The position numbers are program-made. This document shows, piece by piece, positions 12,001-18,000 of a stretch of 42,386 bases of DNA; the first letter of the stretch is position 1, and every line of letters begins with the position of its first letter. The stretch lies in assembly GCA_009886115.1 (NCBI GenBank), contig VFJJ01000060.1, forward strand, positions 1 through 42,386, given 5' to 3'. Origin of the DNA: Actinomycetota bacterium. GTDB taxonomy: Bacteria; Actinomycetota; Acidimicrobiia; IMCC26256; VFJJ01.

Positions 12001-15000
12001 CGAGATCATGTCCGCGTCTACGACGGTTCGGCCCCCGACCGTCCAGCCGGCTCAGATGGTCTCGCGCTGGTTCCGGACACTCGGCTCGAGGCCGTCGTCG
12101 AGGCGGCCGAGGAATGCCCGGGCGAGTGCATCTTCCTCGAGTGACCCGGATTCCTCGAGTGACGTGGGAACCCGGCTGACCTGGGATCCTCGGGTGGCTC
12201 AGCCGTCGGCCAGGCATTCACCGGTCGAGACGGCCCGTCGATCGGCCGGCACCGCGTCGATGATCGGGAGGAACTCCTCGGTCGCGAGCGCGTACGAGAC
12301 GTCACGGTGGTTGGGGTCGATCGCGAACGCCAACCCGATCACGGTTCCGTCAGGTGCGACCAGGGGAGCCCCCGAATCGCCTGGGAACAAGTTGGCCGCC
12401 AGGATCAGCACCTCACGTCGGGTGTTGGCGTCGCGGTAGATGTCGGTACCGGTCGCGGTGATCTGCGAATCGATGTTGGCCGGCCTGATGTTGAGGCCCC
12501 GTCCGGCGGGATGCCCGAAGACCGCGGAGCGGTCCTGGTCGTGCACGTCCTGGCCGGAGCGAGCGATCGGGAGTTCCTGGCGCTCGAGGCCCTCGAGCGC
12601 CAGGATGGCCACGTCGATCGCAGGATCGAACGCCACGACCCGGACTTCGTGGTGCTCGCCGTCGAGCGTCTCGATCTCCGTGAAGCTCTCGCCCGCCACG
12701 ACGTGGGCGTTCGTGATCACGAGGTCGGGTCTCACGAAGAACCCGCTGCCCTCCTGAATGCGGTTGCACGCCCTGCCCGACACCTTCACCGTGCTGGCCT
12801 GGGTGATCGAAACCACGTCGTCGCTCAGCAGGTGGGTTTCGGGAACGTCGCCGGGCTCGCCTCCCAGGTTCTGGCTGAAGAGCGAGGCTTCGTCGCCGAC
12901 GAAACGCTCGAGGCTGTTCGCGACCTCGGGCGGATCGGGGGTCAAGCGGTGGACCGTTCGGACGATCGCCGATCGGTCGGCCTCACGTGATGGCCAGCCC
13001 TCCACCTCGGCCAAGGACGGAGCGACGAGCCAGACGACACAGAGGATCCCGAGGCCACCGACCGCCCCGCCGGCGACCCGGTCGCCTCGGCGTACGTCCT
13101 CGGTGGCTCGGATGTGGAAGTGCACCAACGTGCCCAGGGCCAGGCCCAGGCCCTGGCCGATCATGGCGACGGCGAGGAACAGGCCGAGGACCGCGATGAG
13201 ACGGGTCTGCTCGCTCGATCGATCGAGCGCCCGCCCGAGGGTCGCAGCGAACTTCAGGGCCACGATCGCACCCACCGCCAGTCCCAGCCATGAGAACAGG
13301 CGGGCGAGGAATCCCAGTCGGTAGCCGCCCACGACGGCCGCGGTCAGCGCCGTGAGCAGGAACAGATCGAGCAGATTCACCCGTGATCGTCCGAGACGTC
13401 GCCGGGCTCGACGTCGTCGACGGGCTCGCTGTCGTCGACGGGCTCGGAGCCCCGCCGATGCCGGAACTCGACACCTGGGGTTCGCCGCCCGGGCTCGTCG
13501 TCGAGCAGCAGACGAGCCACCGTGAGGAAGCCCGTGTGGGCGACCATCCGGTGGTCGGGCCGCACCGACGTCGCCTCGACGTGCCAGCCCCGTTGCAGGA
13601 TCTCGATGGTGTCGGCCATGCCGAAGCGCGATCGGCTCAAAGCGTCTCGAAGTTGAGCCACCTGGCCGACGGTGGGCACGTAGGCCACCAGGATCCCCCC
13701 CGGCCGCAACGCCTTCTCGGCGTGTTCGATCACCTGCCACGGCTCGGGCAGATCGAGCATGATCCGGTCGAGATCGCGCTCGTCGATGCCGGCGTAGCAA
13801 TCGCGCACCTGCACGTCGTAGGGCTGACCCGCCCCGAGGAAGCCCTCGACGTTGCGGACGGCGCGGTTGGCGAAGTCGTCACGAAGCTCGTACCCCACGA
13901 CCGAGCCCTCGCGTCCGACCGCTCGGAGCAACGCGCACGACAGCGCGCCGGAGCCGACCCCCGATTCCAGCACCCGCAACCCCGGGCCCATGTCGGCGAG
14001 CATGAGCATCGGACCGATGTCCTTGGGGTAGATCACCTGTGCGCCACGGGGCATCTTGAGGATGTAGTCGGAGAGCGTCGGACGCACGGCGAGCATCTTC
14101 GCCCCGCGGGTGGTGGCCGCGACGGTGCCCTCGTCGGCACCGATGAGGTCGTCGTGGGCGAGGACGCCGGCGTGGCAGTGGAACGATCCGCCCGCTTCCA
14201 GGGGAATGAGATACCGCCGCTGCTTGGCGTCGATGAGCAAGGCGCGCTCGCCCGCTGCGAACGGTCGGACCGGTCCCGGCGCGCTCATCGGTTCACCTCG
14301 ATCGGATCCGGGGCGGGGTTCGCGGCGCCACGATCGGTCGGACCGGTGTGGGTGTCGGGTTCCGCGGCACGGTCACGCCGCTGGGGGCTGGCGATCGCCA
14401 CGGGCGTGTCGACCGGCGCTCCGGCCGCTCGCGAGGCGTCGGCTGCACGGGCCGACCCGGCTTGGGACCGGAGCCGGCAGAACGCGCAGATCTCGCCCGG
14501 TGTCGGCGATCCGCACGACGCGCAGGGCCGCAGCCCCTCCCGAGACTCGGCGGCCGTGCCGGCGAAGCGCTCGTGGGCCCGGTCGAAGAAGCCGCTCACG
14601 AAGCTGGCCTTGGTCCCCGGAGAGCGCCTCTCGAGATCGTTGAGCACCTCCTTGTAGGCCAGGTGCTTGTTCCCTGCGGCGATGGGGCACTCGTCGACGA
14701 TGTAGTCGATGCCTCGGATCACGCAATAGGCGGCCATCTCCCGCTCGCCCACCCGCACCAACGGCTTCACCTTGCGAACGAAGCCCTCGCCCGCGGGCAG
14801 CACGGGGAACTGCCGCCCCAGGTACTCGCCATCCCAGCGCAGCACGTTGCCGAGCAGGACGGCGGCCTCGTCATCGAGGTTGTGACCGGTCGCCACCACG
14901 TCGTAGCCTCCATCGAGCGCAGCCTGGTTGAAGAGATGACGCTTGGACAGGCCGCAGGCACTGCACGGCGCCCGCCGGGCCGCCTTGGCGCCCTCGGGCA

Positions 15001-18000
15001 CGGCGAATCCGTGGTCGGTGGGGAGATCGATCTCGACGAGGCGCAACCCCCGCTCGTCGGCGAAGCGGCGCGCGAGCCGCCCCGACTCGTCGGAGTAGTC
15101 GCCGATGCCGAGCCCGAGGTAGAGCCCGTCGACCTCGATCGACAGGTCGCCGGCCAGGTCGAGGAGCAGGTCCCACAGCGCCAGCGAGTCCTTGCCGCCC
15201 GAGACGGCGACCAGGACCCGGTCACCCTTGGCGATCATGCGGAGATCGTGGATCGTGCGCCGTACCTGCTCGCGGCAGTGACGCACGAAGCACGGGCCGC
15301 AGAACGCGGCGTTGTGGCGGCGGACGTCGATGACGGCCGGCTGGCGGCAGCCGCCGCACTTCATGCGAGCGCCCCGCCGGAGATCACGGGCCGGATCTCG
15401 ACGACATCGAGGTCGTCGAGCACCTCGTCGTGGGTCGCCAGGGTGTCACCCCGGATGACCAGAACCGACTCCGGGTTGAGCTCCAAACGGCGCAGCAACG
15501 CCTGGACCTTCAGCGGCCCGGGGACATCGACCTCGCGGCGAGGGTTGCGCAGGACGACCTTCATCGATGGTGACCACTCCCGTTGGGGACTTCAGGGTAC
15601 CGTGCCGACGCCCCGATCCCGGGGCGCTCGGGCCAGCTCCGTCGACCATCGGACCGACGATGACTCCGACGACCGCTCAGCGAGACGGTGGGATCGCGGT
15701 GATCGTCACCGACTGCCCGGGAAGGAGCTCCTCGATGGCGAGGACCTGGGTCTGGCGATGGCGCGACGAGAGCCGCCGGATGATCGCCACGCCCGACATC
15801 GCGATGCCGAGGACGGCCCACGAGGTGGATCCCTGCCGGAAGCCCTTGCGCAGGCCCGTACGAGCCAGTCGTTCGATGAGCGCGCCGATCATCGGAGCAC
15901 GCTCACACCCGTCGGATCTCGACGATGGTGGTCTTCTTCTTGCCCCCGGATCGTCCGAGGAAGTACAGCAACAGGGCTACGAGCACGGCCGCGGCCACGC
16001 CACCAACCTTGGCCTTGTCGAGCACCTGACGTTTCACCGTGTCGACCTCACCGCGGATCTCGACCAGCTTGGCCTCGATGTCGGCTCGGGTGATCTTGGG
16101 CGTGTCGCTCGAGGCGCTCATCGCACGGCCTCCCCGTCGCTGGTGCGGCTCGGTTCGTGACGGTCGGTGCGCAAGCGCCACACCAGCACGGCGCCCACGA
16201 GGAGCACCACGACCATGATCACGTACGGCGACCACGACCAGTTGCCGTCGAGGCGACCGTCGGTCTCGGTCTGGATGGCGCGCAGGCCGGCCAAGGTGAT
16301 GAACACGACCCCGATCCCGAGGAGGAACGAGCCGGCGACGCCGAAGGCCACGAAACGCATCAGCGCCTTGAGCGGATCGACCGCCTCCTGCTTGAAGTAG
16401 GCGATGAGGAGGGTCTTGAGCTCGGCAGCTTGCTCGGACAGGCGCTTCTTGGCCACGGGTTCCTCAAGAGAAGGTCGACGGAACGGTCGGATTGTCGTCG
16501 GTCGGAGCGGGTCGCGGCAAAGCGCGGGACTTCGAGACCCCGCTCAGGTGCCCGGCGGGGCGATCGTCGAAGGGTCGAGGGCCCGGACGAGCCACTCGTT
16601 CACCTTCGTTGCGACCTCGACCCGGTAGTTGCGGAGCTCGTCGTCGGAGGCGGCTTGGTTGACGATGAAGGCGAACGTGACCCTGCGACCGCCGCTCGTG
16701 TCGACGGCGGTCGCGGGAGCGGCGGCGGCGGTCGGGGCCGCGAGGTCGGGGTCGTCGACGAAGCCGGCCAGGCCCGCGACGTCGTCGAGGAACCCCGTCT
16801 TGGCCCGGAGGCGACCTTCCAGCGCCGTCCCGGTGAGTCGCTCCCGAAGGGTGCCGCTGACGCCGGCGACCGCGAGTCCTTCGTAGAGCACGGCGTAGCG
16901 GGGATCGTCATCGACGAGCGCCAGGGTCGACAGCAGCGCCCGGCACGTCGCCTGGTTGGCGCGGTCGAGGCCCGAGCCGTCGATGATCGTGACCCCCCCG
17001 AGCGGCACGCCCAGCGTCTGCAGCGTCGACGCGACCGCAGAGGCTCCACCGGCCGTGGTGCCCGGGCCACCAGCCGTCAGCGCCAGCTCTTTCACGAGCA
17101 TCTCGGCGATCGCGTTGTCGGACTCCCGCAGCATCGTGGCGACGATCTCGCTCAGGGGTGGCGAGCTGATCTGGGCGAGCTGCACGGCGCCGGGCGGCAC
17201 GACAGCGCGGTCGAAGGTGGGTGCGACGGCGACTCCGGCCCCCGAGAGCATCCGGGCCAGCTCGCCGGCCGCCGCGGCGGCCGGATCGGCGGCCTGCACC
17301 CGTGATCCGTCGGGCGCGCTCCATCCGCCGTTGGTGACGAGGGCCCCGATCGAGCCGACGACGCCCGAGGTCGCGTAGGTCGGCTTCCACGAGGCCACGG
17401 TCGTCAGATCGTCGTAGCGCGATCCGTCACCGTGCACCGATCCGCTCACCGACCGGACGCCGAGCGCCGCGACCTGACCCGCGAGCTGGTCGAGCGGCGT
17501 CAGGGCGTGACCCGTCGACAGGGGTTGCTCATCGAGGTACGCAGCCCACTCGGGGACCATCAGGACGGGATCGCCCCCGCCGACCAGGTACAGCTCGGCG
17601 ACGCTGCCGTCGGCGCCGATCGGCCCGCTCGAATACACGGTGGTGACGAAACGGTGATCGGGTCCGAGGTTCGTCATCGCCGCGGCCGCTGTGAACAGCT
17701 TCTGGGTGGAGGCCGGGATGAAGGGATCGTCGGGCCGGGTCTCGCCGAGCACCCGGTCGTCCTCGGCGATCATGAGGCAGTGCTCGGTGGAGGCCAACGT
17801 GGAGGCCACGACGTCGCCGACCTGGTCGACGGCGACCTCCACCGTGATGGCTTCGGGCAGGCGACGCAGCGACCACAGGGGAACCTCCGCCGACGGGAGC
17901 GGCTGCACCGGGATCGGCTCGGACAGCGCCGGATCGTGCGTGGCGTCCCAGCTCAGGAACGACGCCGTGCCCAGCAGCACGGCGATCAGTCCCCCGGCGA

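Follow-up and report, generated by a model that had tools for sequence, protein, structure and literature searches.

A ttuB-ttuA-trmI operon predicted to direct tRNA U54 2-thiolation in apparently non-thermophilic Actinomycetota

The reference system for the 2-thiolation of tRNA U54 is that of Thermus thermophilus, in which TtuA, TtuB, TtuC and TtuD together with IscS/SufS serve the formation of m5s2U54 (s2T54; PDB 5B4E, 5GHA, 5ZTB). Methylation and thiolation of U54 are described in passages of PMC6418473 as independent of each other in Thermus, and Sulfolobus provides a precedent for a thiolated U or pseudouridine at position 54 without methylation (excerpts of PMC7668247). Sections of the literature treat U54 2-thiolation as a typical thermophile-specific modification that is absent in mesophiles (PMC6313347), and the relevant part of a 2026 compendium still assigns it to thermophiles (PMC13602947).

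The genome of a member of the Acidimicrobiia (assembly GCA_009886115.1, 95.6% complete) contains a related operon on contig VFJJ01000060.1, which was analysed as a window of 42,386 nucleotides, the whole stretch of DNA studied. It is likely that this ttuB-ttuA-trmI operon mediates U54 2-thiolation in non-thermophiles. The pathway itself is known from Thermus; what would be new is a TtuA-type pathway in non-thermophiles with a tailed or fused TtuB. A literature search found no report of a U54-thiolation operon in such bacteria, and supplements of TtuA papers may list actinobacterial homologues.

Organization of the operon and identity of its products

Three minus-strand open reading frames fill positions 13377–15564 exactly in the order ttuB, ttuA, trmI, confirming the overlapping operon that the genome-wide survey's note had claimed; the overlap is four nucleotides at each junction. 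The first (15361–15564) encodes a 67-residue TtuB-like sulfur carrier with a ThiS/ubiquitin fold (PF02597, 28 bits, cut-off 22.5). TtuB is its top PDB match (E 9.8e-9), and this beta-grasp gene adjoins ttuA. The second (14285–15364) encodes a putative [4Fe-4S] PP-loop tRNA thiolase of 359 residues, and the third (13377–14288) a 303-residue protein as called, although translation may in fact begin a few codons further on. The third product carries a TrmI N-terminal domain (TrmI-like_N, 69 bits) and a GCD14 methyltransferase domain (97.2 bits), and is by family a predicted tRNA m1A58 methyltransferase. The gene of a MarP-family membrane serine protease (12199–13380, minus strand; NF033740, 286.5 bits, cut-off 250) also overlaps trmI by four nucleotides; it is found at 52 of 80 related loci and is probably a passenger of the operon. 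The Pup-proteasome locus begins with the minus-strand gene of the proteasome ATPase arc/mpa (10009–12009; TIGR03689, 776 bits, over the cut-off), downstream of which lie dop, prcB/A, pafA and pafB/C. This locus is context and lies outside the thiolation pathway.

The assignment of the ttuA product draws on PDB matches, motifs and NCBIfam scores. It matches Thermus TtuA with an E value of 4.3e-83 (282.7 bits) and Pyrococcus TtuA with 3.7e-67, against 1.5e-28 (103.2 bits) for the U34 thiolase NcsA; these values reproduce the 4e-83 and 1e-28 reported earlier. Its NCBIfam scores are 243 bits for TtuA, 126 for NcsA and 71 for TtcA. The TtuA score is under the 450-bit cut-off of the curated equivalog NF049949; however, this only available TtuA model is centred on Pyrococcus and is passed by none of the 72 other family representatives (best, 427 bits), and therefore the missed cut-off bars only the Pyrococcus subfamily label. 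An identity as the U34 thiolase NcsA/Ncs6 was rejected because the protein reaches 126 of 500 bits (NF047749) and U34 is covered by MnmA, the separate presence of which was confirmed over the cut-off (C138:8701-9810, 375.6 bits, cut-off 284). The C32 thiolase TtcA was rejected at 71.2 of 272 bits (PRK10696). Judged by sequence, the product is best described as a TtuA-type thiolase, closer to tested TtuA proteins than to NcsA, TtcA, TilS or LarE. The neighbours of ttuA in a protein atlas are informative at the family level only, and cluster look-ups name few representatives.

About 300 conserved residues of the ttuA product are followed by a low-complexity C-terminal tail. In the alignment to its PDB match, residues correspond to the zinc, ATP, Fe-S and desulfurising residues of Thermus TtuA. 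C3/C6/C22/C25 and C281/C284/C293/C296 align to the zinc ligands (zinc-finger domain PF22082, 32 bits, cut-off 27), and S55, D59, D165 and K141 are the equivalents of Ser55, Asp59, Asp161 and Lys137. C134, C137 and C226, a CxxC pair plus one cysteine, are the residues that we take to be the three ligands of the [4Fe-4S] cluster. The motifs SGGKDS and GHNxDDE are kept in all of 160 ttuA loci, seven of which are duplicates; the Fe-S cysteines and the Lys137 equivalent are kept in 159–160, and the motifs overall in 153–160. The roles of S55, D59, K137 and D161 in Thermus are described in passages of PMC7138817.

The translated TtuB ends in GG-Ala-Leu-Ala, and thus has a three-residue tail and no free C-terminal Gly-Gly, a feature absent from the earlier note. 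Among 153 distinct loci, TtuB is tailed or fused in 134: a tail follows the GG in 131 and TtuB is fused to TtuA in three. The GG is bare in 17 loci, one TtuB has no GG, and one gene lies beyond a contig end. The tail would block the chemistry until it is cut off, and TtuB-like function would be gained only after trimming. Because the tail or fusion hides the Gly-Gly, a JAB protease is probably needed. The sulfur carriers HcyS and QbsE are matured in this way by the JAB proteases HcyD and QbsD. DRJAMM cuts a MoaD-MoaE fusion, according to part of PMC8832034. The genome has a single JAB/Mec-type zinc protease gene (C116:6251-6676), located inside a mec-cysO-cysM-like cluster. JAB genes occur in 113 of the 116 genomes with a strong TtuA homologue versus 148 of the 285 without one, a count that includes related and hence non-independent genomes. 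Both JAB and E1 also serve other carriers.

The TtuC-like activator reported previously at C138:16915 is present as the genome's single ThiF gene, which encodes a rhodanese-ThiF fusion (PRK08762, 578 bits, cut-off 449). Since it is the only E1 of the genome, it provides no specific evidence, and E1 was rejected as a pathway-specific marker after ThiF rings were found in 12 of 14 control genomes. A gene for a NifS/IscS-like cysteine desulfurase, scoring under the subfamily cut-offs, lies beside mnmA. The genome thus encodes an E1-like activator, a rhodanese and a cysteine desulfurase, a set that is not specific to a U54 pathway.

In 151 of the 153 distinct named loci ttuA is immediately followed by trmI, and in 152 it is accompanied by ttuB. 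Among the loci examined in other families, 28 of 29 have the trmI gene, whereas it is adjacent in only one of 56 non-actinobacterial ttuA loci. The complete trio recurs in a Binatia record, the TtuA of which falls outside the actinobacterial clade. In actinobacteria trmI sits near arc anyway, and therefore part of its linkage to ttuA may reflect position. From 56 tRNA gene calls, seven were put aside as doubtful; G53-U54-U55-C56-R57-A58 is present in 48 of the 49 kept, and tRNA-Phe carries A54. TruB is encoded separately.

Distribution, host temperature and U54 methylases

Strong TtuA homologues are present in 51 of 61 genomes of the order, this genome included, in 106 of 201 of the class, and in 116 of 401 of a lineage-balanced sample of the phylum. 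The raw phylum count was 133 genomes with matches at E<=1e-25. Sixteen genomes with weak matches (f31, f38) were dropped as a distant subfamily, with 31–38% identity, a separate clade, and ttuB or trmI in none of nine loci examined. G236 was set apart, since its homologue has 41% identity and no adjacent trmI and the genome encodes TrmFO and RlmD; it is the sole TtuA-like genome with TrmFO. The order-level frequency agrees with the previous 35 of 41, whereas the occurrence in "a large part of Actinomycetota", based on 68 of 201 phylum genomes, is corrected to 116 of 401 in the phylum and about half of the class; 95 of the 201 class genomes do not carry the operon. Actinobacterial TtuA proteins form one clade with a support of 0.993 in a tree without a Thermus sequence; on this and the 153 distinct loci, an assembly or binning artefact was rejected. 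Similar ttuB-ttuA pairs occur in Chloroflexota (SAR202/Dehalococcoidia, Anaerolineae), Nitrospirota and Binatia.

The proteome looks mesophilic, as reported before: an IVYWREL fraction of 0.399 over 4293 gene calls corresponds to an estimated growth temperature of about 39 °C, close to the earlier 37 °C. No rRNA motif for a temperature estimate was found in the assembly. TtuA is reportedly oxygen-sensitive while Ilumatobacter coccineus is described as aerobic, a point against the proposed activity. Ilumatobacter nonamiensis carries the operon and no TrmFO; for its sister, which comes from that species' own beach sand, growth at 12–36 °C is described (part of PMC3910706).

Searches of the genome found neither TrmFO nor TrmA, in accordance with the previous claim. 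TrmFO was found in none of the 116 strong-TtuA genomes and none of the 201 class genomes, and TrmA over the cut-off in none of 80 tested. However, 216 of the 285 genomes without strong TtuA likewise lack TrmFO. The absence of TrmFO is the background state of the phylum, and mutual exclusion of TtuA and TrmFO was not accepted as proof of replacement, because those 216 genomes lack both and related genomes are not independent.

Proposed pathway and alternative explanations

From the observed genes, their coupling, residues, distribution and gene absences, we infer the reactions and the modification itself as follows. The operon would thiolate C2 of the T-loop U54 on most tRNAs, a target to which the coupling with trmI points, and TrmI would form m1A58, favouring thiolation. 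The JAB/Mec-type protease would remove the tail of the TtuB precursor, or split TtuB off TtuA in fused lineages, to expose Gly-Gly. As in Thermus, the rhodanese-ThiF protein would adenylate and thiocarboxylate TtuB with sulfur from the cysteine desulfurase. TtuA would adenylate U54 and pass on to it the sulfur of TtuB-COSH, bound through the free iron of the [4Fe-4S] cluster; these steps are shown for Thermus, and the residues are conserved here. Since TrmFO and TrmA were not found, the product would most likely be unmethylated s2U54. Its likely role is to stiffen the pairing of U54 with m1A58 in the absence of m5U54, and stress may control it. The full model, comprising U54 thiolation, TtuB trimming and most likely unmethylated s2U54 in a non-thermophile, is reasonably probable.

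The earlier prediction of unmethylated s2U54 gains from 43 of 79 tested TtuA genomes that lack all three methylase families, TrmFO, TrmA and RlmD-like, and is weakened by an intact RlmD-like gene in this genome (C177:21470-22645), which is also intact in I. nonamiensis. It is unlikely, although possible in this genome, that U54 is thiolated and the product is m5s2U54, with the methyl group supplied by this COG2265 protein or an unknown methylase. The protein exceeds the TIGR00479 cut-off (195.1 versus 183.55 bits), keeps the TRAM, Fe-S and catalytic-cysteine motifs, and has counterparts in 36 of the 79 genomes; however, in the PDB it matches RumA, an rRNA enzyme, best (9.4e-32), ahead of the enzyme from Pyrococcus (4.9e-21). 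Mycobacterium smegmatis tRNA reportedly lacks ribothymidine. A Mycobacterium homologue is predicted as 'trm2' for m5U (part of PMC10531406), and archaeal U54 methylases derive from RlmD (passages of PMC7912444 and PMC6418473). The 43 genomes without an RlmD-like gene, in which six weak single TIGR00479 matches (E ~1e-9 to 1e-10) were scored as absence, include the near-complete G287 (one contig, 95%), G309, G014, G345 and G389. Absence was found again in five of five when this genome's RlmD-like protein was the query, in a search run without a positive control; PF05958 misses the gene of this genome and is unusable as an absence test. In the relatives that also lack RlmD-like genes, the thiolated product is forced to be unmethylated s2U54, barring an unknown methylase. 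Unmethylated s2U54 is likely, though not compelled, for this genome, and evenly balanced for the lineage as a whole.

The enzyme might instead act on another tRNA position, form s4-Psi54, or modify a T-loop-like tmRNA or rRNA element or a non-RNA substrate. The family is broad in non-thermophiles such as the Chloroflexota, Nitrospirota and Binatia groups named above, where U54 thiolation is unrecorded; m1s4Psi54 of Ignicoccus is credited to TtuA relatives, and the U/Psi54 chemistry of Sulfolobus is described as unsettled. Such a target is nonetheless quite improbable given the similarity to TtuA, the handling of U34 by MnmA, the coupling to trmI, and the single TruB-motif protein, a second of which was sought in the genome with no sign. 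The prospect that the main output is conjugation of TtuB to proteins, or that the operon is a regulated, mostly silent relic with near-zero thiolation at normal temperature, is remote. It would fit the rise of Thermus thiolation with temperature and the conjugation of Thermus TtuB to proteins, and also the neighbouring Pup-proteasome genes, the class genomes without the operon, and a TtuB that is blocked before trimming. It is opposed by near-invariant catalytic residues in 160 loci and gene coupling held across several classes. An RNA library labelled as ice metagenome, which comes from one study, consists of contigs only and may be DNA, contains 0.71 of the operon's sampled words and also speaks against a silent relic; the shares in other runs, 0.10 (X2) and 0.00 (X3 and X4), do not count as evidence.

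With U54 thiolation as the preferred function, a tentative reading, a little short of evenly balanced, is that the T-loop of a broad range of cool-habitat Actinomycetota normally contains unmethylated s2U54 paired with m1A58. It would take the place of ribothymidine and depend on a tailed or fused TtuB precursor that has to be processed by a JAB protease. The range would cover roughly half of Acidimicrobiia together with Nitriliruptoria-like and further deep lineages. If this is true, U54 thiolation is not a thermophile trait, and SAR202 and Nitrospira are expected to have it. The modification would then be present in actinobacteria that abound in soil and water, probably as s2U54, which is unseen in wild-type Thermus. 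Its purpose would have to be rethought, ttuA would no longer mark thermophily in metagenomes, and bacterial tRNA chemistry would offer a further case of ubiquitin-style precursor processing.

Comparison with described systems

The system resembles that of Thermus in fold, residues, the position of ttuB beside ttuA, one shared E1, a JAMM protease in the genome, and TrmI/m1A58 as a predicted positive determinant of thiolation. Unlike Thermus, the host is non-thermophilic by estimate and has no TrmFO, and translational coupling links trmI to ttuA. TtuB has a tail as a precursor or is fused to TtuA, the protease would act in maturation beyond deconjugation, and the E1 is a rhodanese-ThiF fusion, whereas Thermus has separate TtuC and TtuD. 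Sulfolobus acidocaldarius similarly has TtuA/TtuB and a thiolated position 54 without a known U54 methylase, and is described as lacking TrmA, Pus10 and TrmY (parts of PMC7668247 and PMC7912444). By contrast, it is a thermoacidophilic archaeon for which these sources leave s2U or s4Psi unsettled and describe no trmI operon. NcsA, Ncs6-Urm1 and TtcA share the PP-loop [4Fe-4S] thiolase family, and Ncs6/NcsA use a ubiquitin-like carrier; however, the model scores for NcsA and TtcA are far lower, and U34 is covered by MnmA. As in the JAB-matured HcyS, QbsE and MoaD-MoaE, the Gly-Gly lies behind a tail or partner and would be freed by a JAMM enzyme. Those carriers feed amino-acid, siderophore and cofactor synthesis, whereas the client here would be tRNA, and the protease gene lies outside the operon.

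The ttuB-ttuA-trmI operon and its surroundings

The operon is real and conserved. It occupies the minus strand and is formed by a ttuB-like carrier ORF of 67 residues (15564–15361), the best match of which is TtuB, a ttuA-like thiolase ORF of 359 residues (15364–14285), best matched by Thermus TtuA, and a trmI ORF of 303 residues (14288–13377), identified as TrmI by Pfam. Together, the three ORFs span exactly 13377–15564, the interval given in the genome-wide survey's note, and there is a 4-nt overlap at each junction. The survey had also placed TtuA far ahead of NcsA (4e-83 versus 1e-28), and this ranking holds: the 359-residue protein matches Thermus TtuA with an E value of 4.3e-83 (282.7 bits), Pyrococcus TtuA with 3.7e-67, and NcsA with 1.5e-28. 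The NCBIfam models follow the order TtuA, NcsA, and TtcA (243, 126, and 71 bits), all below their respective cut-offs; TIGR00269 is the only NCBIfam model that the protein passes.

Residues S55, D59, K141, and D165 of the window TtuA align with S55, D59, K137, and D161 of Thermus TtuA, which are essential, K137 taking sulfur from TtuB-COSH (PMC7138817). Both zinc fingers are complete, and, depending on the motif, between 153 and all 160 of the related loci (seven of them duplicates) keep the catalytic, cluster, and zinc motifs. C134, C137, and C226 are the counterparts of the Thermus cluster cysteines.

The gene for a MarP protease overlaps trmI and is followed by a ferredoxin gene (11899–12144, plus strand) and a complete Pup-proteasome locus directly downstream of the operon (arc, dop, prcB/prcA, pafA, pafB/pafC; 2147–12009). 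The ferredoxin gene is inserted in the region of this locus, as is a histidine phosphatase gene. Three small ORFs lie upstream of ttuB (15677–16456); the 71- and 72-residue ORFs there have no Pfam or NCBIfam match. A holin-X-like ORF (PF07332) recurs in 72 of 80 related loci and the 72-residue ORF in 62. The window also contains LutABC-like lactate-utilisation genes (22847–25751) and a PIN-domain (VapC-like) ORF (40747–41145).

The only ThiF gene of the source genome is a rhodanese-ThiF fusion. MnmA, which makes s2U at position 34, is encoded apart from the operon, as the survey stated, beside a NifS/IscS-like desulfurase. A second PP-loop gene (contig C4, position 11617) is probably TilS; the genome also has one TruB and a tRNA-SeC gene.

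Distribution and gene order

Strong TtuA homologues (51% or more identity) are present in 51 of 61 order genomes and 106 of 201 class genomes, in samples balanced by lineage, not by species. Matches with E ≤ 1e-25 occur in 133 of 401 phylum genomes: 116 strong, 16 from a distant subfamily, and one (G236) of another type. The spread through the order reported earlier (35 of 41) thus stands, and the phylum figure of 68 of 201 becomes 116 of 401 when strong homologues are counted. Nine of the 116 genomes are marked unpublished (G001, G018, G048, G082, G088, G120, G173, G235, and G379), as is G546 in the class count; the conclusions are independent of all unpublished genomes. The distant TtuA/NcsA-like subfamily (loci L153–L161, from families f31 and f38, and locus L152), 29–38% identical, lacks ttuB, trmI, JAB, and TrmFO.

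The linkage noted by the survey (43 of 44 loci for each neighbour) extends to the larger set: of 153 distinct named loci, 152 have ttuB upstream of ttuA and 151 have trmI as the next gene after it, the exceptions being at contig ends. Another 29 loci, drawn from further families, all have ttuB, and 28 of them have trmI. Actinobacterial TtuA forms a single clade (FastTree support 0.993), and several coded families cluster with records labelled Nitriliruptoria. Relatives occur in SAR202/Dehalococcoidia, Anaerolineae, Syntrophobacteraceae, Aquificota, and Thermotogota (first homologue set) and in Nitrospirota, Dormibacterota, and Binatia (second set, in which 28 of 80 loci were examined, five of them actinobacterial-type). 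In these non-actinobacterial groups, ttuB is adjacent in 27/33 and 15/23 loci, and trmI in 0/33 and 1/23; one Binatia locus (L387) has the order ttuB-ttuA-trmI. TtuA-type genes, frequently accompanied by ttuB, occur in selected SAR202/Dehalococcoidia, Nitrospirota, and Binatia records (L283–L291, L313, L351–L393). Acidimicrobiia-type loci, 60–68% identical to the queries, are also found in public records under the names Bifidobacterium or Ferrithrix thermotolerans (L026, L069, L074, L268), bins whose titles seem unreliable.

The probable TtuB precursor and the JAB protease

The window TtuB ends in GG-Ala-Leu-Ala. A tail after the Gly-Gly is present in 131 of 153 loci, with terminal GG in 17, a fusion in three, and no GG in one; 116 of the tails are one or two residues long, and Ala is the first tail residue in 78. 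The thiolation chemistry requires a free C-terminal Gly on the carrier (PMC7138817, PMC3980101). A JAB protease, an enzyme with other clients as well, probably trims the tail and so frees the Gly-Gly. JAB genes are found in 113 of 116 strong-TtuA genomes versus 148 of the 285 remaining phylum genomes (the carriers include 14 genomes marked unpublished, on which no conclusion depends) and in all five named genomes tried. The single JAB protease of the source genome is clustered with a CysO/SAMP1-like carrier with a bare GG end and a cysteine-synthase-like ORF. Thermus cells that have lost their JAMM homologue contain half as much thiouridine (PMC3980101), and a JAMM enzyme from Deinococcus is able to cut a MoaD-MoaE fusion (PMC8832034).

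In-frame TtuB-TtuA fusions occur in 13 of the 29 loci from further families. Fused proteins that retain the internal Gly-Gly are seen in several separate actinobacterial families (fusion loci L084, L085, L087, L114, L116–L120, L139–L144, L149, L150, L164–L166, L169, L170, L316, L317, L323, L328, and L334).

Predicted modification state of U54

Thiolated U54 is the most likely product of the operon, predicted to arise by the Thermus mechanism with an added trimming step, and we hold this with reasonable confidence. Among 56 tRNAs called by ARAGORN in the source genome, seven were put aside as doubtful; 48 of the 49 retained have G53-U54-U55-C56-R57-A58. The exception is tRNA-Phe(GAA) (contig C15, 28995–29069; L396, L415), which has A54 in the T-loop AUCGACG. 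A54 recurs in all 21 matches from 20 of 51 order genomes to a pattern permitting A or T (L397–L417), and the conserved A54-A58 T-loop of elongator tRNA-Phe is predicted to be a natural non-substrate of TtuA.

As in the survey, neither TrmA nor TrmFO was found in the source genome; because it contains no full-length GIDA-family gene, MnmG is missing as well. The lack of MnmG/GidA, although MnmA is present, agrees with a compendium's remark on Actinomycetes (PMC13602947). TrmFO is found in 69 of 401 phylum genomes (including G306, marked unpublished) and in none of the 116 strong-TtuA genomes, the 201 class genomes, or, above the cut-off, five Dehalococcoidia genomes; the search was positive in seven known carriers. 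The absence of TrmFO is nevertheless background, not proof of replacement, since the gene is also missing from 216 of the 285 genomes that have no strong TtuA. TrmA is not found above the cut-off in 80 genomes, where 15 weak matches fall on RlmD-like genes. The source genome itself has an intact RlmD-like enzyme (contig C177, 21470–22645) above the TIGR00479 cut-off, with RumA as its closest solved relative, and Ilumatobacter nonamiensis, which carries the operon and no TrmFO, also has such a gene. A full RlmD-like gene is present in 36 of the 79 strong-TtuA genomes tested (out of 116) and absent from 43, of which 37 gave no match and six a single weak one; five of the 43, searched again with the source genome's own protein but without a positive control, gave no match. 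Many relatives are therefore without any known U54 methylase; in the source genome and in I. nonamiensis, the RlmD-like enzyme is a candidate. Unmethylated s2U54, as the survey proposed, would be expected in those relatives and is at most probable for the source genome; across the lineage, we give this prediction about an even chance. Methylation and thiolation at U54 are independent in Thermus, where the wild type shows no s2U54 on its own (PMC6418473), and Sulfolobus has thiolated U/Psi54 without known methylases (PMC7668247, PMC7912444).

Reviews regard m5s2U54 as thermophile-specific (PMC6313347, PMC13602947, PMC3980101). The IVYWREL fraction of the source genome, 0.399, gives a growth estimate of about 39 °C, which is rough at 69% GC. 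The operon, with a GG-Ala TtuB, is present in I. nonamiensis. This species shares its source, a beach sand, with I. coccineus, and it is I. coccineus that grows at 12–36 °C with an optimum of 16–24 °C (PMC3910706). Of the words sampled from the operon, a fraction of 0.71 is found in an RNA library labelled ice metagenome, which comes from a single study and is stored as contigs; this is a hint only, as the stretch may be DNA or carry-over. A literature search, limited mainly to open-access papers without their supplements, found among the papers listed no report of TtuA in Actinobacteria, Acidimicrobiia, or Actinomycetes or of s2U54 in mesophiles; the mentions of these terms in PMC11323500 and PMC13602947 are unrelated. 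Annotation pipelines partly know the family: among the matches listed, 15 of 120 homologues carry the JGI name 'tRNA-5-methyluridine54 2-sulfurtransferase', and RefSeq names the I. nonamiensis TtuA an adenine nucleotide alpha hydrolase.

The closest known counterpart is the s2T54 system of Thermus. The present operon would work alike; however, it differs in its host, gene order, form of the carrier, and probable product.
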